Below, piece after piece: positions 41,801 through 57,754 of a stretch of DNA of 64,000 nucleotides. Each line of letters starts with the position of its first letter. Position 1 is the stretch's first letter. The notes beneath the pieces were generated by a model. It saw only the letters and a program-made list of their open reading frames with translations, searched no databases and was not told the origin of the DNA. Made by a program: the position numbers and the translations under genes. This DNA is from a virus: IMG/VR virus record IMGVR_UViG_3300046534_001341, positions 1 to 64,000 of that record; one strand, 5' to 3'.

Positions 41801-41815
41801 TCCAAGGAGAACACC

Positions 41816-42061: not shown

Positions 42062-42070
42062 GAGAATACC

Positions 42071-42319
42071 GTGCCTACATTGGTTGAGTTCAAAGAACAG
42101 ATACTGGGTACGCTACATGACGAGGAAGCCATTCAAAAAGTTGAAAGGTATTTCGAGTTATTAGCGGACCATGAAAACCATACCGCAGAAGAGATCACCT
42201 CACATACCCGTGAGATGCTAGACCTGCATACATTGAAGCCAAAGCATGTAAGTATGTTGTACAGCTACTACATGAACTCTAAATACTATCAATCAATCAA
42301 AGATCTAGGCTTTAGATAA
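42071..42319 (+). CDS. Hypothetical protein
   Basis: AGGAG RBS, ends before a terminator. Confidence 0.65.
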   Translation: MPTLVEFKEQILGTLHDEEAIQKVERYFELLADHENHTAEEITSHTREMLDLHTLKPKHVSMLYSYYMNSKYYQSIKDLGFR

Positions 42320-42328
42320 ACACCTCAT

Positions 42329-42352
42329 AACCCCACGGTTGTGGGGTTTTTT
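42329..42352 (+). terminator. Intrinsic terminator
   Basis: CCCCAC-GGTT-GTGGGG-TTTTTT. Confidence 0.85.
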
Positions 42353-42415
42353 CGTTTACACACCTTTACACACCTCGCGTGTTTACTGCACATGCGTAGC
42401 CAGTCCGAAAAAAAG

Positions 42416-42427
42416 GGGCTAACGCCC
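42416..42427 (+). promoter_or_regulatory. Candidate vRNAP hairpin promoter 5
   Basis: GGGC-TAAC-GCCC then TAG, upstream of the gp2-like gene. Confidence 0.7.
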
Positions 42428-42477
42428 TAGTAAGGGGAATCACCCCAACCTTTTAATCACTCCGGAATACAAAAATC

Positions 42478-42750
42478 ATGGCATATCCTAGCACTGCTCC
42501 ATCTCAAGCAAACCGCAACAGCATTAAAGTGGCGGCTGCATTCTTGAACATCACCATCAAAGACTCTGCCGGTAACCCTCGACGCATCGGTGGACTGCCT
42601 TTGTACGCAGAAAACAAAACTCACGTTGGTATCCTAGCTAAGTTACAAGCTACGGAAGAAGCTAAGGCTGGTAGTAAAGAGTCTAAGTTCAAGTTTGTTG
42701 TTGACTACGAATTACGTTTAAACGACGCAGATGAAGTCGTTACATTCTAA
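42478..42750 (+). CDS. N4 gp2/Drc-like ssDNA-binding RNAP II activator
   Basis: AFLNI...GLPL core and C-terminal TF, resembling N4 gp2 (FWLNI...GIPL...LTF, recalled). Confidence 0.6.
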   Translation: MAYPSTAPSQANRNSIKVAAAFLNITIKDSAGNPRRIGGLPLYAENKTHVGILAKLQATEEAKAGSKESKFKFVVDYELRLNDADEVVTF

Positions 42751-42807
42751 GTAGTTCCCAAAGGGCATCCATATTGGGTGCCCTTTACTTTGTTTGGGGA
42801 TAGAACC

Positions 42808-43038
42808 ATGGAACCATCAATAATATTAGCCTCTATAGGCGGTGCAGTCATTTGGGGTCTTATCAAGGTGGTGCTCCAAGCCATCTTTGGTAACCGTAAG
42901 AGGCTCAAACCTGTACCTTATGTAGGTCACATGCAGTATTGCCGTGATCACATGCAAGAACCAAATCAATCACATTATGCAGACCACAACTGTGATCACT
43001 GTAAAGCCTTAGCCAAATTTGAATCGGAGCGCGGATAG
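42808..43038 (+). CDS. Membrane-anchored Cys/His protein
   Basis: N-terminal TM; C..H...H.....CDHC. Confidence 0.6.
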   Translation: MEPSIILASIGGAVIWGLIKVVLQAIFGNRKRLKPVPYVGHMQYCRDHMQEPNQSHYADHNCDHCKALAKFESERG

Positions 43039-43039
43039 T

Positions 43040-43360
43040 ATGAAAAAAGTATTAGATACAACTACACCACATGTGTTTGTTAACCCACTATCCGTTCAAC
43101 GTAGTTTTGTGCCTCTTGGACGCTTCGTTGATACACCGATGGATGGTGGTGTGTTACCTCGTGAATACGACCTGTATGCCATTATACATCCAACAGCCAA
43201 CGAGCTGAGTGATGTGAAGATAGGTGTACGCTTTGGTGCCAGTCTCAACGACAAGATGAGTGATGACCTGTCTCGCATCAACAACAGTGGTGTCCATACT
43301 CCAATGGATGAAGTAGCAAAACGTGCAATCAAGCACCTATTTTTTACAAGGAAGAAGTAG
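43040..43360 (+). CDS. Hypothetical protein
   Basis: Tightly packed ORF. Confidence 0.6.
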   Translation: MKKVLDTTTPHVFVNPLSVQRSFVPLGRFVDTPMDGGVLPREYDLYAIIHPTANELSDVKIGVRFGASLNDKMSDDLSRINNSGVHTPMDEVAKRAIKHLFFTRKK

Positions 43361-43361
43361 T

Positions 43362-43667
43362 ATGAACCGATCACCTATGTATAAAAACATGTGTGGGCGT
43401 CAAGTTGACCCTGACTTCACTGAGAAGCAGCTAGTGCCTGAGATACAGAAAGCTGCTTTATCACTGATCAAGTGTGAGGCTGCTGTACATGCTGGTAACC
43501 CTGAGGCTGAAGCTGCTTTCGATGATCTTAGTGCAAACCTTAAGTTTGAAATCAGCAACAACATGTTCCTTGTTAAAGGGACGATCATACTGCGTGAGTG
43601 TGCTAAACAGTTCGACTTAGCCATCCTTGCAGCACATGAGTCCACCCAACAGCGTTACTGCTACTGA
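43362..43667 (+). CDS. Hypothetical protein
   Basis: AAGGA RBS, coupled to the next gene. Confidence 0.6.
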   Translation: MNRSPMYKNMCGRQVDPDFTEKQLVPEIQKAALSLIKCEAAVHAGNPEAEAAFDDLSANLKFEISNNMFLVKGTIILRECAKQFDLAILAAHESTQQRYCY

Positions 43668-44017
43668 TGGATACTCAAATCGATCTAGTCTTTAACCCAA
43701 CTCGTAAACGGAGAGTCACCGTGACTTCAAACATCAAGAAGATTCCGCATACACCTACAGAATTTGTAGCTAAAAACCGTGATAACAAGGCTGTTGTAGC
43801 CCAGTTGTCTATCTTTCCTGCTGGTCGCTTACAAGAACTAGCCCAAGCATTGGGTTTAGTTGCTGTCCGTGAGGGTATGTCTCGTCCTACACATCTAGCT
43901 GTTCGTGAAGGATATATGGCGTACACCAGCTCTGAAGATGGTAAGTCCAGTAAAATGTCTTACACCAATAAGGGTATTCGTTACATAAAAGAATACTTAC
44001 ACCACATCCCTAAGTAA
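43667..44017 (+). CDS. Putative DNA-binding protein (antirepressor KilA-C/ANT-like)
   Basis: ELAQALGL...PT..AVREGYM...YTNKGIRYI pattern. Confidence 0.4.
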   Translation: MDTQIDLVFNPTRKRRVTVTSNIKKIPHTPTEFVAKNRDNKAVVAQLSIFPAGRLQELAQALGLVAVREGMSRPTHLAVREGYMAYTSSEDGKSSKMSYTNKGIRYIKEYLHHIPK

Positions 44018-44062
44018 CTTCAACGCCCTCACAAGAGGGCAACAACCACTACAGAAGAGAGA

Positions 44063-44857
44063 ATGAAAATGTCCCAAGCAAAGAATGTACAAGTATCTGG
44101 TACCGTCCCACATAACGTAGTTGAGCGTGATCAACAGCTAAGCACTCAGATTGATGAAACCGTCAAGATGAGTAAGTACAAGATCAAGCGCACGTTGGAA
44201 GCTGCACGAGTTATTGCACAGGATAACTACGAAGCCAAACAGGAAGCGTGGGTTCTTGCTTGTAAACCAAGAAAGGTAATAACCGATCGTGTTATGGCAG
44301 CAGCCAAAGAATATGCGCTTACTGCCTTGATGCCTATGCTTAACCTATTGGTTGACTACTGCGAATCCGGTGAATCAGGTACATTCTTTGATGATAACCG
44401 TGACGAAGAAGTACCTCTGGAAACCATTGCCAACAAGATGGTATACATAGAGCACTCATACGGCATGCCTTCAGCAAATGAATCACAAAGCATCTGGGTG
44501 TGGTACTACGTGAACGTATTCGCACATGTCTCAAGCAATGCAGGCAACCTTGGTGATTACGAGGATATCCTCATGACACCTAAACATAAATACGTGACCA
44601 TACCTCTGACTCCCGAAGAAACTGCGATCATCGCGCTAGGTGACAACTTGTCTAGTGAGAAGCACCTATTCAACCTTGAGATCAACGAGATCGACACCAA
44701 GCTGAAGAACCTTGACAACATCACTGAAGACATTGAATTCGCATTGCTACAAAGCAAGGCTAAGTCTGAAGGTAATACTCAGGTGACCGACGTGTCAGAT
44801 CAAATCACTAAAGCCATACTGGCCGGTGAAAACCCTAGTGTAATGCTACTTAAATAA
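44063..44857 (+). CDS. Hypothetical protein (264 aa)
   Basis: Long ORF with coiled-coil ends. Confidence 0.7.
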   Translation: MKMSQAKNVQVSGTVPHNVVERDQQLSTQIDETVKMSKYKIKRTLEAARVIAQDNYEAKQEAWVLACKPRKVITDRVMAAAKEYALTALMPMLNLLVDYCESGESGTFFDDNRDEEVPLETIANKMVYIEHSYGMPSANESQSIWVWYYVNVFAHVSSNAGNLGDYEDILMTPKHKYVTIPLTPEETAIIALGDNLSSEKHLFNLEINEIDTKLKNLDNITEDIEFALLQSKAKSEGNTQVTDVSDQITKAILAGENPSVMLLK

Positions 44858-44932
44858 ACCACCAGCCCAGCTAACACAGTGGGCATCATTGTCACCTCCG
44901 GTGACCTACCTGACCAATATTTGGAGAAAAAC

Positions 44933-45223
44933 ATGAAGTCGTTACTAATTATTAACATAGTGATAGTTGCATCAGTGGCCTTAACAATCCAAGTTTTAAA
45001 CATGCATAAACCAAAGCCTTCATTTGGAGGGTTAGTCTTTGAAGTGATCACTACGCCTGTAGATACTATATCTAAAGGGGATGAGTGCAAGATGCTTGGT
45101 ATGAACGTGACTGTATTTCAGGTACGTAAGGCCACTGTAGGCTTTGCAGATGTGGTGACTAACGATTTAACACTACTTAATGTACCTCGACGAATCCTCA
45201 AGAACTGCACACCTCAGCCCTAA
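44933..45223 (+). CDS. Membrane-anchored hypothetical protein
   Basis: GGAG RBS, N-terminal TM. Confidence 0.6.
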   Translation: MKSLLIINIVIVASVALTIQVLNMHKPKPSFGGLVFEVITTPVDTISKGDECKMLGMNVTVFQVRKATVGFADVVTNDLTLLNVPRRILKNCTPQP

Positions 45224-45253
45224 TGGCTGAGGCCATTTCAGGGAGAAGATAGA

Positions 45254-45445
45254 ATGCCTGATTCAAAGATAGCTCATAACTTCGTTCGTGGTATTACATA
45301 CAATTGTGTTAAGTACGATGCCACGTATGCCCAGTACCTAAACCGCATTGGTGAGTTGTACTCAGGTCTAGCCATAAATGAAACCACCTACAAAGAACTA
45401 AAACTAAAGAGATTTCTTGGAGTTATGCCATGTCGAGGTCAGTAG
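45254..45445 (+). CDS. Array A member 1 (KELKLKRFL)
   Basis: GGGAG RBS; YxxYL and tail motif. Confidence 0.65.
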   Translation: MPDSKIAHNFVRGITYNCVKYDATYAQYLNRIGELYSGLAINETTYKELKLKRFLGVMPCRGQ

Positions 45446-45624
45446 CTGAAAGCGCCCATAGGCGTTGTGTCTCCTATCAAGGGTACGAACAAGCAGTCGA
45501 TCGTAAGAACTCCCGATGGGATAGAGACACCATCGACGACACCCTATCAATGGAAGAGTTCATTCAGGTGGGTAAAGAAATCCGCTTAAAACAACTACTT
45601 ACGAGGCACCAAAATGGTATCTAA
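45430..45624 (+). CDS. Array A member 2 (KEIRLKQLL)
   Basis: GGAG RBS; YxxY and tail motif. Confidence 0.65.
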   Translation: MSRSVAESAHRRCVSYQGYEQAVDRKNSRWDRDTIDDTLSMEEFIQVGKEIRLKQLLTRHQNGI

Positions 45625-45626
45625 GC

Positions 45627-45857
45627 TTGTATTCCATGGGTAATGGTTGTCACACAGCTAAGAAGATAGAGCTGCAAGGTAGGACTGATTACATCCGTGC
45701 TGGGTATAAATACTCCACTTACCTACGCATGATCACCTTACGTAATATCGGGCGCCATCCTCCTCAAATAATCACACCTATAACTGAAGAGGACTACAAC
45801 CAGCAGCTCAAAGAGCACGCACTCAAGGAACTGATCTCATGCAACGTGACCCAGTAA
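45627..45857 (+). CDS. Array A member 3 (KEHALKELI); start uncertain
   Basis: YSTYL...TPITEEDYNQQLKEHALKELI. Confidence 0.65.
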   Translation: MYSMGNGCHTAKKIELQGRTDYIRAGYKYSTYLRMITLRNIGRHPPQIITPITEEDYNQQLKEHALKELISCNVTQ

Positions 45858-46009
45858 ATGTAAGCCTGTGGCGGTCGTACGCTGATTTCAGGCACTCGTA
45901 CTACACGTACACCAAAGCCCTCAGTTCTCATTGCACACCAGTTTCTGAAGAAGTGTACAATCAACGACTCAAAGAAAACAAACTCAAATCACTTTTAATA
46001 GGTAAATAA
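45839..46009 (+). CDS. Array A member 4 (56 aa, not in ORF track; KENKLKSLL)
   Basis: AAGGA RBS; YYTY...TPVSEEVYNQRLKENKLKSLLIGK, clear paralog of member 3. Confidence 0.75.
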   Translation: MQRDPVNVSLWRSYADFRHSYYTYTKALSSHCTPVSEEVYNQRLKENKLKSLLIGK

Positions 46010-46010
46010 C

Positions 46011-46202
46011 TTGAAACAAATATGGATATCACAAGATATTGTTAATAGTACTATCACAGCAGGTATCGAAAGCCGTAAGGGTAAGATCGTCAGGGAGAAG
46101 GTGTTCCCTGACACCACCCCAAAACAGATAGTCGATGAATGGGCCAACAAGGAAATCGACATGATGGAGTTACTAATGCTGGAAAACCAAAGTGACACCT
46201 GA
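46011..46202 (+). CDS. Array B member 1
   Basis: KVFPDTTPKQIVDEWANKE. Confidence 0.6.
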   Translation: MKQIWISQDIVNSTITAGIESRKGKIVREKVFPDTTPKQIVDEWANKEIDMMELLMLENQSDT

Positions 46203-46437
46203 CCCAACTGAGTTCTGGAGGGATATTACATTGAAATCAGCAGAAGGATACACCTGGGGATGGGAGAAGCAGCGTAGAAACTACGAGGCCACCATCCACT
46301 TCGATGGCTTTCAAGTCATAACCAAGAACTTCCCTATAGGTACTGAGCCAGATGTAATGGCTGCATGGGCCAAAGGGGAGATCCAAGTACGTAAACTCAA
46401 AGACCTTATCGCGCCTCCGGCACGTTCCAACCCGTAA
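46192..46437 (+). CDS. Array B member 2 (KLKDLI)
   Basis: GYTWG...KNFPIGT...AAWAKGE. Confidence 0.65.
   Translation: MTPDPTEFWRDITLKSAEGYTWGWEKQRRNYEATIHFDGFQVITKNFPIGTEPDVMAAWAKGEIQVRKLKDLIAPPARSNP
46410..46424 (+). promoter_or_regulatory. GC-rich hairpin with TCC loop (GGA on template)
   Basis: CGCGCC-TCC-GGCACG, one mismatch. Confidence 0.4.
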
Positions 46438-46462
46438 TTTAACCTAAATAACTGAGTAACAA

Positions 46463-46741
46463 ATGATCCAAATTAATGAAGTATTCTCATGTGAACGCGA
46501 CAAATACCAATGGTTGCTTCACCAAAAGAAACCTAAGGGTAAACACCCAATCACAGGTGAGTTATCCACAAAAGAAAGCACCTCTGTCACATACCACTCA
46601 AACCCTGAGCAGATCATGAATGTGGTGATAAATCGCAGCTTAGGTAAATGTGAGTCACTTGTAGAGATGCGTGACATGCTCGTAGAGAGCCGTGAGATGG
46701 TCTCTAAGGCATGTGCGGCTATAAGTAAAGCCAATACATAG
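46463..46741 (+). CDS. Hypothetical protein
   Basis: DKYQWLL...TYH pattern common in small phage proteins. Confidence 0.65.
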   Translation: MIQINEVFSCERDKYQWLLHQKKPKGKHPITGELSTKESTSVTYHSNPEQIMNVVINRSLGKCESLVEMRDMLVESREMVSKACAAISKANT

Positions 46742-46754
46742 GTGAGGTATAAAT

Positions 46755-46964
46755 ATGGCCAGATACTGGGTTAAATTCAAACGTATCAAGAAGACTAATC
46801 GAGTGATGGCAAGCTTGGTTATGCCCACTAATGCAGGGCCAAAAGTCATGGCCCAGAAAAGCTTCCATGCTTACCAAACCTCTTATGGGACTATTGACCC
46901 TAACGTCCAGAAATGGGCAAGTCCCTTAGTGAACATGTATCGGCTGCTATCTCCACATGGGTGA
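46755..46964 (+). CDS. Array B member 3 (divergent)
   Basis: GAGGT RBS; KSF...QKWAS...YRLL. Confidence 0.55.
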   Translation: MARYWVKFKRIKKTNRVMASLVMPTNAGPKVMAQKSFHAYQTSYGTIDPNVQKWASPLVNMYRLLSPHG

Positions 46965-47220
46965 GCTAAGTGAGATCTACCCTAGGGTACACAGAGCAAT
47001 TGCAGCACCTTGGGAACCGAAGTACACGAGAGGGTTCGCTTGGGTAATACCTCCTCACACCAATCTTAGTGAGGTGAAAGTAATCATCCGAGTCAACTCA
47101 AAACAACAACGAGAAGAGACATTCAACGCTACAGACATAAAAGCTATAGCGAAGTGGATTAACTCACAGACCAAAATCTTAAGGTTAGTCATGCCGGGGG
47201 TGTCTAGTGACAGGAGATAA
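46957..47220 (+). CDS. Array B member 4
   Basis: GFAW...ETFNAT...IAKWINSQ. Confidence 0.6.
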   Translation: MGELSEIYPRVHRAIAAPWEPKYTRGFAWVIPPHTNLSEVKVIIRVNSKQQREETFNATDIKAIAKWINSQTKILRLVMPGVSSDRR

Positions 47221-47488
47221 CACACAACCTGATAAGATAGTTGGGCGGATAAGATTACATACCCAACCAATTAATGGATTCTACTGGTCTATGTTCCACG
47301 AGCACCCAGATGGTGTGTACGTAATGGCTTCTTACTCAGACCCAATTGTAGTTGTAATACAGCTTTACGACAATACTAAGACATTCCCTGCCTCTACACC
47401 ATGTAGTGACATTGAGGGTTGGGTACTAAAAGAAACCAAGAAGATAAACCTGAAGAATTTACTTTTTACTTGTACCAAAACCAATTAA
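47207..47488 (+). CDS. Array B member 5 (KKINLKNLL)
   Basis: GFYW...KTFPASTP..DIEGWVLKE. Confidence 0.65.
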   Translation: MTGDNTQPDKIVGRIRLHTQPINGFYWSMFHEHPDGVYVMASYSDPIVVVIQLYDNTKTFPASTPCSDIEGWVLKETKKINLKNLLFTCTKTN

Positions 47489-47537
47489 TTATAAACCCAA
47501 AGGTGGCTACGGCAACCGAAACATAAAGGTATAAACC

Positions 47538-47846
47538 ATGAATAAATTAGCATTAGTAATAACCATTGCGGCTATGGTTGGATGCGCATCTGCACCACGT
47601 CAATTGCCTGTATTGGTAGATGGTAACAACTATCTAGCTATGGGCACCGACTGCTCGTATGGCATGATGAGCCAAAATGTACCTAATCAGCTTGACTGCT
47701 ACAACGAAGACAAAAAGTACACAGGCAATCGTAAGCCTATGACAGCCAAAGAGCTTAAGGACTTCTGGGCAATACGAGACCAGAACATCACAGACCGTCA
47801 GGTTGATCGATTGAAAACACAGCTACGTAATGGCCGAGGACGTTAA
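47538..47846 (+). CDS. Lipoprotein
   Basis: Signal peptide with MVGC lipobox. Confidence 0.7.
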   Translation: MNKLALVITIAAMVGCASAPRQLPVLVDGNNYLAMGTDCSYGMMSQNVPNQLDCYNEDKKYTGNRKPMTAKELKDFWAIRDQNITDRQVDRLKTQLRNGRGR

Positions 47847-48319
47847 TGCTAGAGATTACGCAGGAAATTAATTACTACTGTAAAGATGTTAATGGGTACT
47901 CATGGGGGGTGACTCAGGAACACAACCGAGCCAGCCCCATCAAGGTTGAGATTCATACCAAGCCCAGTATAAAAAAGACATTCATCTCCAGCACCCCTAG
48001 AAATAGGATCGTAGATTGGATCACCCAAGAGACCGCTAAGCTCAAGCTAAAAGCCTTGATAGGCCCTAAGGCCAAAGTAGAGTTGGGAAACCCTTGGGAG
48101 GGTTTAGTGAAACTTTCAGGGCAGATGAATCAGGTTAAGACTTGCGGGAGAAGAGTAGGAGTCATCATCTTTGATAGTATAGATAACTACTACGAATCCA
48201 ACGCCACCCAGTACGTATCCAGCACCAACATACCTGAGTCCAACCAAGCCGCCGCCTTTGATAAACAAACCGGTAAAAACAAATCCAAAACTAAATACAA
48301 CAGCCCATACGGGCCATAG
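47846..48319 (+). CDS. Array B member 6 (KLKALI) with C-terminal extension
   Basis: GYSWG...KTFISSTP..RIVDWITQE. Confidence 0.65.
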   Translation: MLEITQEINYYCKDVNGYSWGVTQEHNRASPIKVEIHTKPSIKKTFISSTPRNRIVDWITQETAKLKLKALIGPKAKVELGNPWEGLVKLSGQMNQVKTCGRRVGVIIFDSIDNYYESNATQYVSSTNIPESNQAAAFDKQTGKNKSKTKYNSPYGP

Positions 48320-48327
48320 GAACCACC

Positions 48328-48597
48328 ATGGAACAGTTTATTGTAGTCATAGTTATAGGGATCTTCTTCTACTACCTAGGATCTAGGGATGGTAAGAAGG
48401 ATCAGTACAAAAAGGACAAGGCCATGATGGGGGTTATGGAATATGCCACCATCAAAGCATTTAGGCAAACTAGAGAAAAATGTTTATTGAACGAAATTTT
48501 GATTGCAAAGATAGCCTTACTAGAGAAAAACAAAAAAGAAATAGATGAAGTCAGTGGTAAATCATCAATTAATACAGGCAAGACCAATGCTGAATAA
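48328..48597 (+). CDS. Membrane-anchored hypothetical protein
   Basis: N-terminal TM then G..DG. Confidence 0.6.
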   Translation: MEQFIVVIVIGIFFYYLGSRDGKKDQYKKDKAMMGVMEYATIKAFRQTREKCLLNEILIAKIALLEKNKKEIDEVSGKSSINTGKTNAE

Positions 48598-48931
48598 AAA
48601 CATACACATAAAAACTGGGATGCTACTCGTAGTAAAGAAAACCTTCTGGACTACTGCTGCCCACAAGGTTGATACTTTCCACGTGAAGTATCAAATACCT
48701 AAAGGTACCATCCTTGAAATACGTTACCCGTATGAGTGGCACTTCCGCTTTGGAGACAATTGCTGGGCACAAGTACCAGCAGAAACACTGGTTAAGTGTT
48801 GTGAGTTCTTTGGTGTGATCCATGAAGATGTAAGGTTCAATAACAATAATAGCCTACCTGAAATCATGGAAGAAAATCTGTACTACCCTGCATCTGAATA
48901 TAAATTGGTTCGTTCCGAATCTGCAAAATAG
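48587..48931 (+). CDS. Hypothetical protein
   Basis: Overlaps the previous stop; ends before hairpin 6. Confidence 0.6.
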   Translation: MLNKNIHIKTGMLLVVKKTFWTTAAHKVDTFHVKYQIPKGTILEIRYPYEWHFRFGDNCWAQVPAETLVKCCEFFGVIHEDVRFNNNNSLPEIMEENLYYPASEYKLVRSESAK

Positions 48932-48942
48932 TTGTTCTCTTC

Positions 48943-48954
48943 CGGCTAACGCCG
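48943..48954 (+). promoter_or_regulatory. Candidate vRNAP hairpin promoter 6 (upstream of RNAP II subunit 1)
   Basis: CGGC-TAAC-GCCG then TAG; position analogous to the N4 early promoter driving RNAP II genes. Confidence 0.75.
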
Positions 48955-48991
48955 TAGGGGGCAACGTCCCCCACACTTTAAGGAAATATCC

Positions 48992-49972
48992 ATGGAAATC
49001 AAGAACCTAGAACAAATGTGCATTGAAGACCGCTATTCTCGTAGCAACATCCGTGCTCGTGTCCTTCTGGACATCATGGATAGTGTTGAAACCGATCTTG
49101 CTATAGCCTTCGACAAGGCAGCACAGGCCATTCACAACTATGCCTACGGAAAAGTATCACAGACTTATTGGTCATCCAAACTGGTGCGTGTACAGCACCT
49201 ACGTAACCTATTAGATAAAAAAATGACCATCAATGATCTTGTACTTGAGATCTTAATTATCGTTATGCCTATGAAGACCGCTCAGCCTATACAGGGGCCG
49301 TGTGGTCGCTTAGGTGGTATGTTAGGTTACGGGGATATATTCGATGGCGTAAAGACGGCTGCGGAGCTACTAGCAGTAGTGTGCTTCTCAGACCTTTACG
49401 ACATCATTCCAGCTAGGGAAAGCGAGGGCGACAGTATGTCTATAATGCCACGTTACTCCCTAGAAAATGAAACCAATCAGTTCATTTCAGACACCAAGTA
49501 CCTACCTCCTATGATCTGTAAGCCTGAAGTATTGACTCGCAACTTTCAGAGTGGGTACCTAACCATAGAAGACTCAGTGATCCTGAAGGGTGTGAACCAC
49601 CATGAAGAGTATGTATCTCTGGATGTGCTCAACATGGCTAATGGTACCGCGCTAGCCTTGGACACTAACATCTTACGTATGAAGGAAAAGCCTAATAAGC
49701 CGTTCGATTCACTACATAAAGATGGGTCTGTACCAACAGTTAAAGTGATCTTGGAACGTGAGAAGAACTTTTTGGAACTGAAGGCAGCATCAAAAATTGT
49801 GTACAAAGAGTTACTAGATAACGGCAATGAGTTCTTCAACTGCCATAAATTCGACTCTCGTTCACGCAAGTACTCTCAGGGGTACCACGTCCACATTCAG
49901 GGAAGTGAGTATAAGAAAGCCATTATTAACCTGGCTACGGAGGAAGTGATCACAGATGGTATTATCTTATGA
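48992..49972 (+). CDS. RNA polymerase II subunit 1 (N4 gp15-like)
   Basis: YLPPMICKP, SGYLT, HKFDSRSRKYSQGYH..QG..YKKA. Confidence 0.92.
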   Translation: MEIKNLEQMCIEDRYSRSNIRARVLLDIMDSVETDLAIAFDKAAQAIHNYAYGKVSQTYWSSKLVRVQHLRNLLDKKMTINDLVLEILIIVMPMKTAQPIQGPCGRLGGMLGYGDIFDGVKTAAELLAVVCFSDLYDIIPARESEGDSMSIMPRYSLENETNQFISDTKYLPPMICKPEVLTRNFQSGYLTIEDSVILKGVNHHEEYVSLDVLNMANGTALALDTNILRMKEKPNKPFDSLHKDGSVPTVKVILEREKNFLELKAASKIVYKELLDNGNEFFNCHKFDSRSRKYSQGYHVHIQGSEYKKAIINLATEEVITDGIIL

Positions 49973-50187
49973 AAATGCCTGACAGACCTTTCGGTACATT
50001 CCCCTACGACATCTTCAATGTGATTACAGATCATGAAGGGGAGTTCGTACAGCACGCCGTGGCCAGACACTTCACCATGTCCCTGAGTAATGCCCAGCAA
50101 TGGGTTGATTACCATGAATATTCAATTAAGCGACTAAAGCTTAGAAAACTCTTGGAAAGTAAAAATGGAAGAACCAAGGCTACCTAA
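49969..50187 (+). CDS. Array C member 1 (KRLKLRKLL)
   Basis: FPYDIF..I...AV..H...S..NAQQW. Confidence 0.65.
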   Translation: MKMPDRPFGTFPYDIFNVITDHEGEFVQHAVARHFTMSLSNAQQWVDYHEYSIKRLKLRKLLESKNGRTKAT

Positions 50188-50404
50188 AGGCATGATCCCA
50201 CCTGATATCTACAGGATTATTATAGGCCGTATTGACGGTGTTCATGCAGTAACGGCTTTGTGTCATTACACAGATCTAAACGAAGAAGAGGCATCAGATT
50301 GGTTTGCCTTCTATAAGTGGGCAGCAGCAAATCGTGAAGCCCGACTAGAACAAGCACACAAAGAAAACCAACTCAAAATATTACTAAGACTCAAAAGGAA
50401 ATAG
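50165..50404 (+). CDS. Array C member 2 (KENQLKILL)
   Basis: IPPDIY..I...AV...CHY..L...EASDW. Confidence 0.65.
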   Translation: MEEPRLPKGMIPPDIYRIIIGRIDGVHAVTALCHYTDLNEEEASDWFAFYKWAAANREARLEQAHKENQLKILLRLKRK

Positions 50405-50406
50405 CA

Positions 50407-51402
50407 ATGCAAACATTCTCAGGTTTAGATTATACAAAGATCGCCGTAGCAAATGCCTTCGGCAATGATAAAGATGTCTGGGATGATCGCATTGATTGGG
50501 CTGAAAAGTTCCTTGAGAAGCAGTCGGCTCATACGATGCGTAAAGCAGATGAGCCATTCTTAATGAGGAAGGCTGTGAACGCTTACAACGATGCAGTGGC
50601 TGGTAAGGCTACTGGTTACATAATGGGCCTAGATGCCACGTCCTCAGGGCTTCAGATAATGGCTGCCTTGAGTGGTTGCCTGACTACTGCCCGTAACGTG
50701 AATCTTATCAATACCGGTTCAAGAGAAGATATATACCTGAAAGTAACCAAGCGCATGCAGGAACTGTGCCCTCACCTAAACATCACACGTAACCTTCTAA
50801 AGCACCCAATCATGACGTTCTTCTACAACTCTAAGGCGCAGCCTGAAGGTGTATTTGGAAAGGACACCCCTGAGCTAGATGCTTTCTACGAAGTACTGCA
50901 TGAACTCCTACCGGGAGCCATGGAAGTAATGCGCATGATTCAGGCATGTTGGAATCCTGAAGCCACTGAACATAAGTGGACCGCACCTGATGGACACGTA
51001 TCTATACCTTTGGTTATGGACTACGTAGACACCAAGATCGAAGTAGAAGAGTTAGGTAAGGCTACATTCACCCACCGCGCCAAGATCGTTATGTCTGATG
51101 AGCGTGGCTTATCATTACCGGCAAATGTGAACCAATCGATTGATGCTTACATCGTTCGTATGATGTATCGCATGGCTCATAGTCAGGGTTGGGAAATCCT
51201 AACAGTACATGACGCATTCTTCTGCACACCGAATAATGTGAATCGTATGCGTATGAACTACAACAAGATCTTATCTAAGATCGCCTCATCCAACATGCTT
51301 TGTGACATCTTGAAAGAGATCACAGGCAATAAGGGAACTATCAAGAAGATGTCTACTACACTTCCTGGCTTGATCCTTAAAGCAAACTATTCACTTAGCT
51401 AG
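50407..51402 (+). CDS. RNA polymerase II subunit 2 (N4 gp16-like)
   Basis: LDATSSGLQ (A), RNLLKHPIMTFFYNS (B), VHDAF (C). Confidence 0.95.
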   Translation: MQTFSGLDYTKIAVANAFGNDKDVWDDRIDWAEKFLEKQSAHTMRKADEPFLMRKAVNAYNDAVAGKATGYIMGLDATSSGLQIMAALSGCLTTARNVNLINTGSREDIYLKVTKRMQELCPHLNITRNLLKHPIMTFFYNSKAQPEGVFGKDTPELDAFYEVLHELLPGAMEVMRMIQACWNPEATEHKWTAPDGHVSIPLVMDYVDTKIEVEELGKATFTHRAKIVMSDERGLSLPANVNQSIDAYIVRMMYRMAHSQGWEILTVHDAFFCTPNNVNRMRMNYNKILSKIASSNMLCDILKEITGNKGTIKKMSTTLPGLILKANYSLS

Positions 51403-51695: not shown

Positions 51696-51980
51696 ATGAG
51701 TGATACAACACAATTAAACAAACCTCTTTGGCATCAGAACCTGACATATGGGCAGGTGGAGGCCGAAGCAGAAAAGGACTATCCTAAGGTTATATACAAT
51801 CTGCATGAGGATTGTTTATGCCTACGCGAAGAGCTGGCGGCTTTGAAAGCTGATCGCGGGCTGCTCGTCACTGCGCTTTTATCAATTGTAGATTCTAATA
51901 GCTTCGATCCAGATGATGGGCGCTATATGTCAAATATTGCAGAACTAGCATTAAAAAAGGCGGCGACAAATGGAGTCTAG
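51696..51980 (+). CDS. Hypothetical protein
   Basis: Start after the second repeat copy. Confidence 0.6.
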   Translation: MSDTTQLNKPLWHQNLTYGQVEAEAEKDYPKVIYNLHEDCLCLREELAALKADRGLLVTALLSIVDSNSFDPDDGRYMSNIAELALKKAATNGV

Positions 51981-52043
51981 ACAGGTGATTACAGCGGTAG
52001 TGCTGAATGCTCAAAAGCTCACAAACCAGATAGAGGAAAAATC

Positions 52044-52257: not shown

Positions 52258-52358
52258 TGTTTGCCCTGTTCGTAATAGAAGTCTCGCTAGCGAGGAAAAA
52301 GTTATGAAACCGATAGGCTAAAAACCTAAAACACCCAAAAGCCTACCATAGGCAAACG

Positions 52359-52394
52359 AGCCCCTAACCTTAACCGGTTGGGGGCTTATTTTTT
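52359..52394 (+). terminator. Intrinsic terminator
   Basis: AGCCCCTAACC...GGTTGGGGGCT then TATTTTTT. Confidence 0.8.
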
Positions 52395-52409
52395 GCCAAA
52401 GGAGGCAAT

Positions 52410-52649
52410 ATGAACGAATTAGATCTTATGAATTTACTGTGGGTAGTGTGGTTTATTTTATGCACCATCCTATCCTTGGGCTTAGCTATTTATACTAAGT
52501 GCGGGGGTGACGCACTGTTATTGATTTTAATGGCTGGTTTCTTTGGGCCGTTTATATGGGTGCTAATAGGTTTGGCCACTCTCATATTATTGATGGCGTT
52601 TTTAGGGGAGCAACTCCTTAAATTCCTAAGGAGGGGGCATGACCAATAA
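52410..52649 (+). CDS. Small multi-TM membrane protein
   Basis: AGGAGG RBS, highly hydrophobic. Confidence 0.7.
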   Translation: MNELDLMNLLWVVWFILCTILSLGLAIYTKCGGDALLLILMAGFFGPFIWVLIGLATLILLMAFLGEQLLKFLRRGHDQ

Positions 52650-52854
52650 GGCAGTATTAGACGAAGATGAGTGCATCGTGTGCACGCACAATAAACATGC
52701 AAAAGGCATAATATGGAGGTTGAGGGTGAACAACATTATGACAGATAAGCCTGTTGAAGGTGTAAGAAGAGAATTCGTATATTGCAGTTATTGTGATGCG
52801 GGCAAAGAACTAGCCAAACAGGAGCTACTACGTGAGCTACTTATCAAAAAATAA
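52639..52854 (+). CDS. Array D zinc-finger protein 1 (KQELLRELL)
   Basis: CIVC...CSYC..G. Confidence 0.7.
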   Translation: MTNKAVLDEDECIVCTHNKHAKGIIWRLRVNNIMTDKPVEGVRREFVYCSYCDAGKELAKQELLRELLIKK

Positions 52855-53026
52855 CCCTAGAAAGATCTGCCCAGTATGCAAGGATACAGGTAAGACCTGG
52901 AAAAACCTACCTAGCGGTGTGCTAGATAAAAGTCCTAGAGGGGTTACATACTGCTGGTGCCCTGTAGGTGAGAAAATGGAAAAAAAGAAAGAACTCCGTG
53001 ACCTGCTTATGGGAGTTAAATCATGA
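52832..53026 (+). CDS. Array D zinc-finger protein 2 (KKKELRDLL)
   Basis: CPVCKDTG...CWC..G. Confidence 0.7.
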   Translation: MSYLSKNNPRKICPVCKDTGKTWKNLPSGVLDKSPRGVTYCWCPVGEKMEKKKELRDLLMGVKS

Positions 53027-53283
53027 CAGAAGGGTGTAAGGCGTGTGGTTTTGGGTTGCTACCGAAAGAGTATAAAAAATTTGAAGAGCTTCAGCACGAG
53101 CAGGGGTCGACCATCCCAATGCAGTATTGTTTTTGTGCTAATGGACAGAGACTAGCCAAAGAGGGTCGGCTACGTAATCTACTAACAGGAGAAAAATCGA
53201 ATCAATATACGGTACCTGACGACGTAGATTACAAAGATGCCGAGGATAAGGTAAGGGATTGGTTGGACTTAGGGGTTATATAG
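53023..53283 (+). CDS. Array D zinc-finger protein 3 (KEGRLRNLL)
   Basis: CKAC...CFC..G. Confidence 0.7.
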   Translation: MTEGCKACGFGLLPKEYKKFEELQHEQGSTIPMQYCFCANGQRLAKEGRLRNLLTGEKSNQYTVPDDVDYKDAEDKVRDWLDLGVI

Positions 53284-53480
53284 TGGGTTACTTAGGTAGG
53301 AAATATAACTATAAAGAGCAGTGCAGGACATGCGGGGGCAAGGGTAGATACCGTGAACGTAGAGCCCCTGATCCTAATGACCCCCATAGGGGTCGTAACC
53401 CAACTCAACTATGCCATTGCCCTGCAGGTGAACAAAAGGCTCGTGATGAGGCTTGGGATCGGATACAGAATGATAGTTAG
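53283..53480 (+). CDS. Array D zinc-finger protein 4 (tail motif degenerate)
   Basis: CRTCGGKG...CHC..G; GTG start. Confidence 0.65.
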   Translation: MGYLGRKYNYKEQCRTCGGKGRYRERRAPDPNDPHRGRNPTQLCHCPAGEQKARDEAWDRIQNDS

Positions 53481-53658
53481 ACATGTTGAATGCAGGGCCT
53501 GTACTAAAGATGCTTGGGACTTACCCAGATGTGTCATAAACCGTACAGCACCTGACGGGTCGTTTAGACGAGCCAGTTCTTTTTGCCTGTGTGCGGTAGG
53601 TAGGCACCTACTTCAGGTTTACTCACTCAAACAATTATTGAAAGGAAAGAGGATATGA
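53470..53658 (+). CDS. Array D zinc-finger protein 5 (SLKQLL)
   Basis: CRAC...CLC..G. Confidence 0.7.
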   Translation: MIVRHVECRACTKDAWDLPRCVINRTAPDGSFRRASSFCLCAVGRHLLQVYSLKQLLKGKRI

Positions 53659-54104
53659 ATGACCTAATACTGTGGGCAGTAGTGACGGCAGTGATGTCAG
53701 CGCCTGTAATACTACTCATGAAAATATATGAGTGGAAAGCTTGCGTGCTCTTTGGGCACCACCCCAGTGAGTGGACGTGGGCGCAGGATGGGTATAACTC
53801 CCCTGTGCCTAATGAAGAACGGATCTTGTTCAGCCAGATGCACGGGCATTGTCGCCACTGCAAAGTGGAGGTACGTACGTTTAGTGAGCAGCATAGACTT
53901 ACAGCCTATTACACCAAAGAGCAGTGTGCCCAGTACGGGTATGAATTCGTTGATAAGAAAGAATACGAACTCAAGAAACTGCTTCTAGGTAAACGTAACG
54001 ACGATGACCTATTCACTAGAAGTAACCAGATAAATTCAGGCATGCCTATGTTGGGCACAACAGGAAGGGTGATCAAAGTCGGCTTCCCTAGGAAGCTTAT
54101 ATGA
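53655..54104 (+). CDS. Membrane-anchored Cys/His protein with KEYELKKLL
   Basis: N-terminal TM; CVLFGH...CRHC. Confidence 0.65.
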   Translation: MNDLILWAVVTAVMSAPVILLMKIYEWKACVLFGHHPSEWTWAQDGYNSPVPNEERILFSQMHGHCRHCKVEVRTFSEQHRLTAYYTKEQCAQYGYEFVDKKEYELKKLLLGKRNDDDLFTRSNQINSGMPMLGTTGRVIKVGFPRKLI

Positions 54105-54250
54105 AACAAACAACCAAAAAGTGTCCCAAGTGCGGCAACACTCATCTGATCTTACTACAATCCCAGAACCTCAAGGTCTGTATGAACCATAAACCTAAAG
54201 CAGTCCTAATTCCTTGGTTCTTGGATAAAGGACAAAGGCCTTTACTATGA
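54101..54250 (+). CDS. 49-aa zinc-ribbon protein (not in ORF track)
   Basis: KKCPKCGNTHLILLQSQNLKVC...IPWFLDKGQRPLL; ATGA-coupled at both ends. Confidence 0.7.
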   Translation: MKQTTKKCPKCGNTHLILLQSQNLKVCMNHKPKAVLIPWFLDKGQRPLL

Positions 54251-54450
54251 GAAAAGCTGTCACGTTTAACCCACACTGGGTGGGTGAGGAGCCTGCTTGG
54301 GACATCCGTTTATTAAATGGGGATCACCACCGCAGCGTTACTAAAACTACTATTTTAGCTGTAAGCACTAGAAGACATGGCACCAGTGTATTGGAGTGCG
54401 ATGTTCAAGATTACGGCACACACCACTTAAAAATAGCAGCGCAGAAATGA
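54247..54450 (+). CDS. Hypothetical protein
   Basis: ATGA-coupled at both ends. Confidence 0.6.
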   Translation: MRKAVTFNPHWVGEEPAWDIRLLNGDHHRSVTKTTILAVSTRRHGTSVLECDVQDYGTHHLKIAAQK

Positions 54451-54632
54451 GCAAGTGCGGTATGTGCTCTCATGATGCTGTACATACCGCGACAGGTATA
54501 TTACCTCCCCTGCATGATTGGGGTACATTTACCTTTTGTCGTTGGTGTGTGAAGGGCGCCCAACTCAAAAAAGAACAGGCACTTAGGCAACTACTTAGAG
54601 GAGACCCTCCATGTGCAAAACCAGAGATATAA
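54447..54632 (+). CDS. Array D zinc-finger protein 6 (KEQALRQLL)
   Basis: CGMC...CRWC..G. Confidence 0.7.
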   Translation: MSKCGMCSHDAVHTATGILPPLHDWGTFTFCRWCVKGAQLKKEQALRQLLRGDPPCAKPEI

Positions 54633-54877
54633 GTAAACCTGAAGAATGCGTAATGTGCTCAGAGGGTTGTGACCCAGCCGCCACAGGCAGAAGACCCCAC
54701 AAAAAGTTCAGTACTGAATTCTGCGTTTGGTGTGATCTAGGTATACAGTTGGAAAAGGAACATAACCTCAAGAAATTACTTCTCAATGATAAGAAACCCC
54801 GAACAATTGCCGATCTTATACGCAAACAAATGAATGCAAAAGGGGCGGCCTCCGGCCGCTTTGTTCCCAAAAATTAA
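54611..54877 (+). CDS. Array D zinc-finger protein 7 (KEHNLKKLL)
   Basis: CVMC...CVWC..G. Confidence 0.7.
   Translation: MCKTRDISKPEECVMCSEGCDPAATGRRPHKKFSTEFCVWCDLGIQLEKEHNLKKLLLNDKKPRTIADLIRKQMNAKGAASGRFVPKN
54845..54859 (+). promoter_or_regulatory. Perfect GC hairpin with TCC loop upstream of the AAA ATPase
   Basis: GCGGCC-TCC-GGCCGC. Confidence 0.5.
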
Positions 54878-54898
54878 TACACCCAAAAAGGAAATACC

Positions 54899-55948
54899 AT
54901 GCAGCAGATTACAGCAGTACAAGCACCAGAGTTATTGATGGATGTAATGAAGGCCGGATTGGTTCCGATGATAGTATCATCCCCCGGCATTGGTAAGTCG
55001 TCAATCGCCAAGCAAATTGCAGAAGACCGTAACCTGAAGGTTATTGATTTACGTTTATCTCAGTGTGATCCAAGTGATCTACTTGGTTTTCCCTCAATCA
55101 ATAAAGACAAAACCAAAGCTGGTTATGTACCAATGGATACTTTCCCTATTAAGGGTGATCCAATACCATCACGTACGGTTAATGGTGTAGTCAAACCTTA
55201 CGCAGGCTGGTTACTTTTCTTAGATGAAATGAACTCAGCAGCAAAGTCAGTACAAGCAGCGGCTTACAAAATAGTCTTGGATCGACAAGTTGGCCTACAT
55301 GATCTGCATAAAAGCGTAGCTGTAATGGCAGCCGGTAACCTATCTACGGATAAGGCGATCGTGACTAAACTTGGTACGGCCATGCAATCACGTATGGTTC
55401 ACTTTCACCTACGTGAAGACTTCAAGTCTTGGATGGCATGGGCGGCGACTTCAGGTATTGATTACCGCATCACTTCTTTCTTGAACTTCAAGCCAGAAGC
55501 GTTATTCAATTTCTCACCTGACCACAATGACTGCACTTTCGCATGTCCTCGTACATGGGAATTTGTGTCTAAGATCGTGATTAATTGGAAAGAGATTGGT
55601 TCTGATAAATCACCTTTAATCGGGGGCACAATCGGTGAAGGTATGGGTCGTGAATTCCTAGCCTTCTGTCAGGTGTTTGGGGAACTCCCAACAATCAGTG
55701 AGATAGTTAACAACCCTATGGGTACTAAGCTGTCTGACGAGCCTACAGTACGTTATGCCTTAACAGGTATGATTGGGTCACACATCACCCCAAATAACTC
55801 AGATGCGTTAATGAAATTTGTTGATCGTATGCCTGTGGAATTTCAAATCATCACGCTTCAATCAGCACTATTACGTGACCCTAGCCTATTGTCTCAAGGC
55901 TCTGCATTCGATGCTTGGGTTACCAAACACGCTTCACGTTTAATGTAA
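54899..55948 (+). CDS. MoxR-like AAA+ ATPase (N4 gp24-like)
   Basis: SPGIGKS Walker A, LFLDE Walker B, AAGN sensor I, PRTWE. Confidence 0.92.
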   Translation: MQQITAVQAPELLMDVMKAGLVPMIVSSPGIGKSSIAKQIAEDRNLKVIDLRLSQCDPSDLLGFPSINKDKTKAGYVPMDTFPIKGDPIPSRTVNGVVKPYAGWLLFLDEMNSAAKSVQAAAYKIVLDRQVGLHDLHKSVAVMAAGNLSTDKAIVTKLGTAMQSRMVHFHLREDFKSWMAWAATSGIDYRITSFLNFKPEALFNFSPDHNDCTFACPRTWEFVSKIVINWKEIGSDKSPLIGGTIGEGMGREFLAFCQVFGELPTISEIVNNPMGTKLSDEPTVRYALTGMIGSHITPNNSDALMKFVDRMPVEFQIITLQSALLRDPSLLSQGSAFDAWVTKHASRLM

Positions 55949-55952: not shown

Positions 55953-56609
55953 ATGAATATGACGACTCTCGCTGGATTCTTAAAAGAAGTAGAGAACCAT
56001 AAATTAACAGTGGTTCGGGATGACGGTTTGAATCGTCATATTCGTTTAGCAGAACCAGGCACAGGTAACTGTCAATTTGATTTAATTACTTGGCCTGGTC
56101 ATCTGTGTGTCACTGGGGATTGTGGAACTTATGTATTCCAAAGGACCAATGACATGTTTGAGTTCTTCCGCCAGAACCAGAAAGGCGAGAAGGAACTGCG
56201 CATCAATAGTGGATACTGGTCTGAGAAACTACTCAGCACATGTAATCACGGTGGTGTTAAAAAATTCTGTACAGATTTATTCAAGAAACAGTTGGATGAC
56301 TACATAGAAAACCACTGGGAATTTGAAGATGACGACGACGAAGAGCTTAAGGCTGTCGAAGTTAAAGCAAAAGTTTTAGCAGAAGTAAATGAAGAAATTG
56401 TCACCATACTTGATATGGGTAAAGACATGGCCTTGAACGCAGCCATGACTTTCAAGTCCGAATATGGGCACACTTTTGAAGATTTCTGGGATTACGAATT
56501 CGACAAGTATACCCACCACTTTTTGTGGAACCTATACTCCATTGCATGGGGTATTCAACAATATGACCTCAGCAAGGAATCAGAATGTCCTACTCCAAGC
56601 AAGACTTAG
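55953..56609 (+). CDS. Conserved hypothetical phage protein
   Basis: DDGLNRH...FDLITWPG.L..TGDCG pattern; lies between the AAA and vWA genes. Confidence 0.7.
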   Translation: MNMTTLAGFLKEVENHKLTVVRDDGLNRHIRLAEPGTGNCQFDLITWPGHLCVTGDCGTYVFQRTNDMFEFFRQNQKGEKELRINSGYWSEKLLSTCNHGGVKKFCTDLFKKQLDDYIENHWEFEDDDDEELKAVEVKAKVLAEVNEEIVTILDMGKDMALNAAMTFKSEYGHTFEDFWDYEFDKYTHHFLWNLYSIAWGIQQYDLSKESECPTPSKT

Positions 56610-57754
56610 AAACAGCTTTTGATAAAGCAAAAATTGGTTTGATGACTAAGCACAACAGCATATTCATCACGACCATCCTATTCTCCCTGAAGCATACGTG
56701 GGACGAATCCTGCAAGACTGCTGGGACGAATGGGGTCGATTTGGTAATAGCGCCCACATGGTTCATGAGTATGACTGCAGGAGCCCGTATGGGCCTACTA
56801 GCGCATGAAGCATGGCACGTTGCTTTCAACCACATGACCCGTGGTGACAGCTACGAGCATAAGGAATACAACATTGCTGCTGATCATGTAATTAATGTGA
56901 TGCTGAAGGATGCTAGTTACGAGCTCCCTGAGGGGGGTTACGGAGACTTTAAATACCGTGGTTGGAGTACCGATGAAGTGTATAAAGATCTGCAATCTAA
57001 CCCAAAGCCGCCGCCACCTAAAGGTGGTGAAGGTTCAGGGGGCTGCGGTCAGGACATTAAGTACCCAAGTGATGAAAAAGACAAAGATGGTAAGGGTAAT
57101 ACCCAAAAACAAAAAGACAACCTTCAGCGCAAGATAGAAGACACCCTGATCAAAGCCACCACCCAGTCGAAAATCATGGGTGACGCTGCTGGTACGATCC
57201 CAGGAGACATCTCCCGAATGCTGGATGAACTTCTTAATCCAAAATTGGATTGGAAGACTTTGTTGAGCAATTATATGAATGCCTTCGCTAAAGAAGACTA
57301 TTCGTATCAGCGCCCCAACAAACGATTTATGCCTGATTTCTTTTTACCTGGTATGCACAGTGAAAGTCTCGGTGAGATTTGTTTTGCATGTGACGCCAGT
57401 GGTTCTGTATCGCAGGCAGATTTTACTGCGTACTTGAATGAAATTAATTACGTGAAGGAAGAGTTGAATCCCGTCCTCACTACCATTATCGATTTCGATA
57501 CTCGCATTAATAATGTTCACTCTCTCGGACAAGATGATTCGATTGAAGGTATTAAATTTACAGGTGGTGGCGGTACAAACCTCACTCCAGTATTTGATTA
57601 CTACAGTGACCGCAAGCCTGTTGTGCTAGTGGTCTTTTCGGATTTGTACTGTTCAATGATTAAGAATGATCCAGGCTACCCAGTTTTATGGGTGTGCGTG
57701 AACAACCCACGGGGCCAAGTAAATTTCGGCACCATAATTCATATTGACCTTTAG
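56585..57754 (+). CDS. Metallopeptidase-vWA protein (DUF2201, N4 gp25-like)
   Basis: HEAWH, DASGS MIDAS, GGGGT, FSD. Confidence 0.9.
   Translation: MSYSKQDLETAFDKAKIGLMTKHNSIFITTILFSLKHTWDESCKTAGTNGVDLVIAPTWFMSMTAGARMGLLAHEAWHVAFNHMTRGDSYEHKEYNIAADHVINVMLKDASYELPEGGYGDFKYRGWSTDEVYKDLQSNPKPPPPKGGEGSGGCGQDIKYPSDEKDKDGKGNTQKQKDNLQRKIEDTLIKATTQSKIMGDAAGTIPGDISRMLDELLNPKLDWKTLLSNYMNAFAKEDYSYQRPNKRFMPDFFLPGMHSESLGEICFACDASGSVSQADFTAYLNEINYVKEELNPVLTTIIDFDTRINNVHSLGQDDSIEGIKFTGGGGTNLTPVFDYYSDRKPVVLVVFSDLYCSMIKNDPGYPVLWVCVNNPRGQVNFGTIIHIDL

Follow-up and report, generated by a model that had tools for sequence, protein, structure and literature searches.

A tandem array of predicted zinc-finger mini-proteins in an N4-like phage carries a tail helix found on unrelated small early proteins

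Introduction

LxxLL-type docking motifs, such as the eukaryotic nuclear-receptor boxes, and the hubs of short linear motifs (SLiMs) rely on a short L-x-x-L-L patch that is carried by otherwise unrelated proteins. Here, we describe a comparable patch in a bacterial virus, where it lies in the helix of seven tandemly arranged genes for predicted zinc-finger mini-proteins and recurs on unrelated small proteins of the same genome. The array occupies positions 52639 to 54877 (+ strand) of a 64,000-nucleotide (nt) stretch of DNA, hereafter the window, which represents the first 64 kb of the complete 76,845-bp IMG/VR virus record IMGVR_UViG_3300046534_001341. The parallel with nuclear-receptor boxes can be taken as an analogy in principle only; the phage motif is extended (K-E-x-x-L-[KR]-x-L-L-x-G) and comes from a bacterial virus.

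On the zinc-finger side, the paralogs of the array resemble Anti-TRAP (RtpA) and the DnaJ module, which also comprise about 55-65 amino acids (aa) with four Cys residues in two knuckles, where the Cys pair is followed by Gly and then by a helix at the C-terminus. Anti-TRAP oligomerises through this helix and binds a protein target with its zinc part. The ligand spacing of the paralogs (CxxC, 21-33 residues, Cx1-2C) differs from that of both proteins, and their fold models reach a predicted local distance difference test (pLDDT) score of only 57-61. The N-terminal zinc domain of the DnaI/DnaC/IstB loaders is similar to one paralog (B) according to an ESM-Atlas look-alike (template modelling (TM) score 0.61, from a low-confidence model); however, these loaders share no sequence similarity with the paralogs, which have no attached ATPase domain. 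As for the genomic place, the gp17-gp23 slot of coliphage N4 corresponds to that of the array and is flanked by homologous genes (gp15, gp16, and gp24), but the genes that N4 itself carries there (a decoration protein, superinfection exclusion, a lipoprotein, and others) are unrelated to the array. No description of such an array or of its tail was found in the literature.

Identification of the paralog family

The original prediction, made from the sequence without database searches, held that seven open reading frames (ORFs) of this region encode zinc fingers with hypervariable loops and a constant tail. All seven are present on the + strand and form one paralog family, whose common pattern is far beyond chance: CxxC, an unalignable insert, [Y/F/L]-C-x(1-2)-C-x-x-G, and a helix with L-x-K-E-x-x-L-[KR]-x-L-L-x-G. 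The CxxC...Cx(1-2)CxxG layout was thus described correctly, but the insert is 21-33 residues long instead of the 18-30 given before. The degenerate tail noticed in the ORF at 53283 (paralog D) was also borne out, reading W-D-R-I-Q. The paralogs are as follows.

52639..52854, + strand: paralog A, 71 aa; CxxC, 33 residues, YCxxCxxG; LRELL 3 residues from the C-terminus
52832..53026, + strand: paralog B, 64 aa, GTG start; CPxC, 24 residues, YCxCxxG; tail LRDLL
53023..53283, + strand: paralog C, 86 aa, acidic; CxxC, 27 residues, YCxCxxG; LRNLL, with a 32-aa C-terminal extension
53283..53480, + strand: paralog D, 65 aa, GTG start; CxxCGGKG, 26 residues, LCxCxxG; degenerate tail WDRIQ
53470..53658, + strand: paralog E, 62 aa; CxxC, 27 residues, FCxCxxG; tail LKQLL
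54447..54632, + strand: paralog I, 61 aa; CxxC, 23 residues, FCxxCxxG; tail LRQLL
54611..54877, + strand: paralog J, 88 aa; CxxC, 21 residues, FCxxCxxG; LKKLL, then a second predicted helix

Family membership was examined by leave-one-out searches with profile hidden Markov models (HMMs), for which the 1586 ORFs of a six-frame translation of the genome served as the database. Each omitted paralog ranked right after the seven profile-building ORFs, with E-values of 2.3e-7 (A), 1e-7 (B), 4.3e-6 (C), 9.3e-9 (I), 5.1e-8 (J), 6e-5 (E), and 0.0068 (D), and the best non-family ORF had an E-value of at least 0.14. A profile search found no further family member among the genome ORFs. Three other ORFs lie between paralogs E and I:

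53655..54104, + strand: ORF F, 149 aa, doubtful eighth member; N-terminal hydrophobic helix, HGHCxxC, and one more Cys
54101..54250, + strand: ORF G, 49 aa, CPKCG-type and zinc-ribbon-like (phrog_25658, E-value 6.6e-4); not a family member
54247..54450, + strand: ORF H, 67 aa, unrelated; no Cys motif, no tail, and similar to nothing searched

ORF F failed the leave-one-out search (E-value 19) and scored 38 bits once it was put into the profile; if it belongs to the family at all, it would be a degenerate eighth paralog. ORFs G and H are unrelated to the family and break up the array.

When the profile was searched against 1.84 billion representative proteins, only the phage's own proteins, one false positive (P0008, an EGF-repeat protein of 1438 aa), and small relatives were recovered. 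The new relatives (63-94 aa) were P0009, P0010, P0011, and P0013, and P0005 was matched as well. Together with the matches of word-indexed searches and of a cluster look-up, the orthologs are assigned as follows.

Paralog B: P0009 (79%) and P0016
Paralog C: P0010
Paralog I: P0015 (87%)
Paralog J: P0005 (82%), P0011 (55%), and P0013 (43%)

Paralog E was absent from the matches of every protein-library search. All orthologs are located on independent ENA/Logan contigs of closely related phages, where the neighbourhood is conserved: orthologs of B and C are each found on a contig of 2224 bp, those of I and J on one of 3478 bp, and P0013 on one of 76,718 bp. Two more orthologous contigs measure 1991 and 761 bp. 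Apart from the family pattern, two of the three J orthologs (P0005 and P0011) keep G-A-[AS]-S-G-R-F-[VL]-P at the extreme C-terminus of paralog J (54790-54877), which may be another short linear motif.

Outside these contigs, the family was absent from N4, TR2, VBP47, G19, two IMG/VR N4-like contigs, and five JGI/other metagenome contigs, the last five of which encode an ATPase 42-53% identical to that of the phage. Searches of viral and metagenome contigs with paralog J, the J-family alignment, and the ATPase yielded no family-carrying locus; tblastn of P0013 against the phage collection gave no match, and tblastn of paralog B gave chance matches only (E-value at least 2, on the wrong strand of tape-measure genes). 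Among the Pfam, PHROG, NCBIfam, PADLOC, and PDB profiles, no family was matched by more than one member, and the PDB profile search gave nothing below an E-value of 0.29. The weak matches to HNH (paralog C to phrog_9645, E-value 0.0067), zf-PHD-like, DUF7577, and DnaJ_bact were taken as chance because each came from one member only. These comparisons show that the family of predicted 60-90-aa Cys4 mini-proteins is real, conserved, and lineage-specific. Since no profile was matched by several members and the only relatives are close orthologs on a few contigs, the family is an orphan confined to a narrow clade.

Conservation of the loops

The inserts between the two knuckles had been called hypervariable, and their display on a fixed scaffold had been likened to antibodies. 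In the five closer comparisons (the orthologs of B, C, and I, and P0005 for J), identity was 58-90% in the loop and 74-89% in the second knuckle plus helix; for the distant J relatives P0011 and P0013, the values were 29-38% and 65-75%, respectively. Array contigs from four metagenome studies were near-identical, and the sole variant contig (52912-53337) showed eight listed differences, five synonymous and three non-synonymous (V45L, E47D, and K52E of paralog B), a ratio that fits a coding sequence under selection. All of these changes are confined to the helix or its vicinity, and the loop codons that the contig covers are unchanged. Furthermore, a search of the complete 76.8-kb genome for PF00078 (reverse transcriptase) gave no match, although control genomes were matched, and the array DNA contains no template-like repeat or template-variable pair.

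Judged from these alignments, the loops change faster than the scaffold yet are clearly maintained, and are paralog-specific, not hypervariable. The original prediction had itself named loop conservation in relatives as an outcome that would speak against it, and such conservation is largely what was found. What remains of it is a fixed scaffold of four Cys residues that carries an insert specific to each paralog and is followed by a constant helix, and the conservation of each insert among orthologs suggests that the paralogs have distinct, maintained specificities instead of diversifying loops.

A tail motif common to small early proteins

The constant tail is present in the paralogs as first described, but it is not peculiar to the zinc-finger family. 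The pattern L[KR]xL[LI] was matched 21 times in the 117 called genes and once more in paralog J, which the gene caller had missed; these 22 matches compare with 2.8 +/- 1.6 in residue shuffles, i.e., an about 8-fold enrichment in the proteome. Seventeen of them fall in small ORFs of the 39-55 kb region, and in 12 of these 17 the motif ends 3-11 residues from the C-terminus, often with basic residues next to it. The tail-bearing ORFs represent at least five unrelated head types, including the zinc-finger family; the other families of small proteins, at least four in number, have unrelated and mostly Cys-free heads and end in a K-E-x-x-L-[KR]-x-L-[LI] helix. Their members are:

Within 39087-50404, other tail-bearing ORFs: 39087-, 39353-, 45430, 45627, 45839, 46192, 47207, 47846, 49969, and 50165

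Profile methods gave the same picture across families. A position-specific scoring matrix trained on six zinc-family tails ranked ORF F first outside the training set and then 45430, 45839, 45627, and 50165, near the top of all genome ORFs; ORF F has a perfect tail (KEYELKKLLLG), which is followed by a 39-aa extension. When the zinc-finger family was aligned by hhalign with another family (A8, 45254-46009), only 13 tail columns (Q-l-x-K-E-x-x-L-+-x-L-L) were matched, with an E-value of 0.0016, and the heads remained unaligned. The codons of the motif vary between copies, and the array DNA repeats itself only where it encodes the tail, with 66-76% identity, which shows that selection acts on the peptide. 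A DNA-level cause of the tail (linker, promoter, or ribosome-binding site (RBS)) was ruled out on the same grounds. In two families, the orthologs have retained the tail, also on the 76,718-bp contig(s). Six other N4-like phages showed no enrichment of the motif; the early regions compared were those of N4, TR2, VBP47, G19, and metagenomic relatives. Taken together, a modular head-plus-tail architecture, broader than the one originally noticed, appears plausible.

The tail helix is polar except for an L, L, L patch, with a hydrophobic moment of 0.08-0.37 and a mean hydrophobicity of -0.45 to 0.10 over 15-residue windows. These values argue against a membrane anchor or a membrane-targeting amphipathic helix of the MinD/FtsA type, and for a small docking patch.

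Two side observations concern small proteins near the array. The ORFs 49969 and 50165 are paralogous (72 and 79 aa) and sit between the gp15-like and gp16-like genes (49969-50404), while in N4 the gap between gp15 and gp16 is only about 47 bp long and holds no gene. The product of gene 52410, immediately upstream of paralog A, has a tail-like end (E-Q-L-L-K-F-L-R-R-G).

A possible docking role for the tail

We propose that the array arose as a lineage-specific tandem expansion of one orphan zinc-finger mini-protein family. Four Cys ligands from two knuckles would hold each finger, and the insert of 21-33 residues would give each paralog its own specificity, so that the heads might bind different protein or nucleic acid targets. 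The common helix (K-E-x-x-L-[KR]-x-L-L, usually followed by Gly), which also occurs on about ten other small early proteins, would plug all the heads into one partner, which could be a hub of the host or a protein of the phage itself, and this shared docking may serve early host takeover. To the claim that the zinc-finger heads dock through the LxxLL-like helix on one shared partner, we assign a probability of roughly 45%. It is supported by the enrichment of the tail, its occurrence on unrelated families, the selection at the peptide level, and its retention in orthologs. The wider version, in which about 20 early mini-proteins from at least five head families would form a motif-based docking network around a single hub through one LxxLL-like helix, is possible but tentative, and we consider it less likely than not.

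The structural models bear on this question. AlphaFold models of paralogs B and J, built with a family alignment of 14-15 sequences, were poor overall (pLDDT 57 and 61); in both, the best-scored part (pLDDT 73-76) was a 17-residue helix that starts at the second Cys pair. Foldseek (PDB and BFVD) and VIA-align searches with these models found no usable match.

Several points weigh against a docking function. The helix could merely pack on its own head as a structural element, an arrangement that the poor quality of both models leaves room for. Paralog D has been retained despite the loss of the exact motif, and in paralog C, ORF F, paralog J, and two non-zinc proteins the motif lies 27-85 residues from the C-terminus. 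The sharing of the tail could also reflect common descent, by duplication and subsequent head replacement, instead of a common partner. Moreover, zinc binding by the paralogs is predicted from the Cys pattern alone, and we likewise infer the intermolecular role of the tail and its biological effect.

The overlapping gene chain and its setting

The paralogs are part of a longer series of genes, whose upstream end and downstream neighbour are:

52358..52387, + strand: strong intrinsic-terminator-like hairpin with a 12-bp stem and a T-run, closing the preceding unit
52410..52649, + strand: very hydrophobic membrane-type protein of 79 aa that heads the chain (grand average of hydropathy 1.25)
54899..55948, + strand: MoxR-like AAA+ ATPase, homolog of N4 gp24, downstream neighbour

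Between 52410 and 54877, eleven + strand genes are joined by start/stop overlaps of 1-23 nt, as in the TAGTG shared by the stop of paralog C and the start of paralog D, and most have a recognisable RBS. Gene 52410 has an AGGAGG RBS, which together with the ATG lies no more than 23 nt past the hairpin, and there is no sigma-70-like promoter between hairpin and gene (52358-52409). From this layout, the chain is a single, presumably translationally coupled unit that includes the small membrane protein and begins just past the terminator.

The record is that of an uncultured marine/sea-ice phage, which is N4-like (Schitoviridae-type) by its gene content. It encodes a giant virion RNA polymerase (RNAP), a split RNAP II, a gp24-like ATPase, and a DUF2201 von Willebrand factor A (VWA) protein, in the order known from N4, which marks the early/middle accessory region of such phages. 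Specifically, a virion-RNAP-sized ORF of 3262 aa lies at 1586-11374; the N4 RNAP II subunits are represented by a gp15 homolog at 48992-49972 (33% identity, E-value 1e-27) and a gp16 homolog at 50407-51402 (38% identity, E-value 7e-45; PF00940); and the MoxR-like ATPase is 45-49% identical to Schitoviridae ATPases. Megablast of the array DNA against 50,697 phage records gave no match, i.e., there is no close deposited phage at the DNA level, while Logan contigs from ice and seawater metagenomes (the four studies mentioned above) carry near-identical DNA. On the N4 gene map, the array fills the variable gp17-gp23 slot between the RNAP II genes gp15/gp16 and the gp24-like ATPase gene. The first 22 kb of N4 contain neither the zinc-finger family nor an enrichment of the tail.

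Two further features of the region were noted. The segment 51597-52074, just upstream of the chain, is a variable spot with strain-level variation among the aligned contigs, comprising a minor variant with nine listed differences (51734-51809), a joint that skips 337 nt (51701 to 52039), and several loose contig ends. Hairpins on the + strand with a short GC stem and a TAAC loop occur at the gene boundaries 40383, 40766, 42416, and 48943 and are candidate early promoters of the N4 type; a loose pattern for such hairpins gave seven matches against 3.9 expected, which alone is not significant.

Alternative explanations

The rival that fares best, which we nevertheless regard as unlikely, is that the mini-proteins are small regulators of the Mu Com or treble-clef type that act independently of one another, each bound to its own DNA or RNA site, and that the helix is an element of the fold or of dimerisation. 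Six of the seven paralogs are basic (pI 8.4-10.0), and their size and C4 pattern are those of small phage zinc-finger regulators such as Mu Com. The models, in which the helix begins at the second Cys pair and ligands 3 and 4 would thus sit at its N-terminus, are compatible with a treble-clef-like finger, and the E(-3)/[KR](+1) spacing would suit a salt bridge within the helix. However, no Pfam or PDB profile of a nucleic-acid-binding zinc finger was matched, paralog C is acidic (pI 5.1), and there is no repeated operator-like DNA in or near the array. This explanation also leaves unaccounted for the common nine-residue tail on unrelated, Cys-free heads.

It is improbable, in our estimate, that the paralogs imitate a zinc module of the host (for example the N-terminal helicase-interaction domain of DnaI/DnaC/IstB, or a DnaJ/Anti-TRAP knuckle) and, as decoys or inhibitors, block replication, chaperones, or defence. 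The original prediction had pointed to a DnaC/IstB and DnaJ resemblance, of which a weak lead is left. The ESM-Atlas structure look-alikes of paralog B include the N-termini of viral IstB_IS21 ATPases (query-normalised TM 0.61, 0.44, and 0.40) and the DnaJ family (0.38), and its feature list contains a cluster with Anti-TRAP in 25% of the members (score 0.83); however, the Atlas model of B has a pLDDT of 0.58, and Atlas scores below 0.9 serve as leads only. Paralog D has the exact CxxCxGxG in its first knuckle, the only such case in the family (as second knuckle, every member has Cx(1-2)CxxG), and one member matched NCBIfam DnaJ_bact at an E-value of 0.072. On the other hand, the feature look-alikes of paralog I are mainly unnamed small viral proteins and name neither IstB nor DnaJ, and 15 family members gave no match to PF00684 (hmmscan, E-value up to 1). 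Anti-TRAP (PF15777) likewise showed no Pfam or PDB sequence match. No two members matched a common family in Pfam, NCBIfam, or PADLOC, and this and the empty Foldseek and VIA-align searches argue in the same direction. The phage genome has no IstB-type loader of its own (PF01695), and an HMM search of the 1.84 billion representatives found no form in which the zinc module is fused to an AAA+ loader.

A further reading makes the mini-proteins substrate adaptors or clients of the MoxR-type ATPase and its DUF2201 metallopeptidase/VWA partner; we consider it a poor candidate. That the array stands directly upstream of an AAA+ ATPase gene, as originally stated, is right as regards position: the ATPase gene starts 21 nt past paralog J on the same strand. 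The VWA protein, encoded downstream of the ATPase (56585-57754), matches the DUF2201_N putative metallopeptidase domain and contains HExxH within it. In addition, the 13-mer AAWACACCCAAAA occurs exactly only at 52328-52340 and 54876-54888 in the 64 kb and so flanks the array chain, one copy just before the terminator and gene 52410 and the second immediately ahead of the RBS of the ATPase gene; the 13-mer may be a promoter or another regulatory element. Against a functional tie, the ATPase/VWA pair is conserved in N4-like phages, of which every examined relative is without the family and the tail, the array slot is filled by the unrelated gp17-23 in N4, and most tail-bearing genes lie 4-15 kb from the ATPase gene. 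Given the variable slot and the ATPase-bearing N4-like phages that have no such family, the link looks positional.

Even less probable is that the tail is a targeting or turnover signal (a degron or packaging signal) that times or localises about 20 early proteins. Its position near the C-terminus in 12 of the 17 proteins, often with basic residues after it, and its occurrence on unrelated proteins, as might be expected of export and degradation signals, are compatible with such a role, but in five proteins the motif is 27-85 residues away from the end, and to our knowledge the tail fits none of the established bacterial degron classes. A capsid packaging signal would be expected on late genes, and the genes concerned are early or middle ones.

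Finally, an antibody-like display with loops actively diversified within populations, suggested by loop sequences and lengths that are unalignable between paralogs and by the low loop identity relative to the scaffold in the two most distant J orthologs, is largely refuted by the 58-90% of loop residues kept in close orthologs, by the near-identical contigs of four studies, whose only variant has no loop change in the covered codons, and, for a mechanism like that of diversity-generating retroelements, by the absence of a reverse transcriptase and of a template/variable repeat pair.

Implications

The shared nine-residue tail, which is under protein-level selection, is the unusual part of the array and offers a testable handle on it. 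If the motif is a docking tag, about 20 hypothetical proteins would become one system acting through one hub; such a docking network, if true, would represent a type of viral short-linear-motif system that has not been described in bacteriophages, and the zinc-finger array would supply the largest set of its specificity modules. Should the motif prove to be only structural, the array would be an ordinary lineage-specific paralog family. Either way, the reading of the array as an antibody-like diversification system can be dropped.

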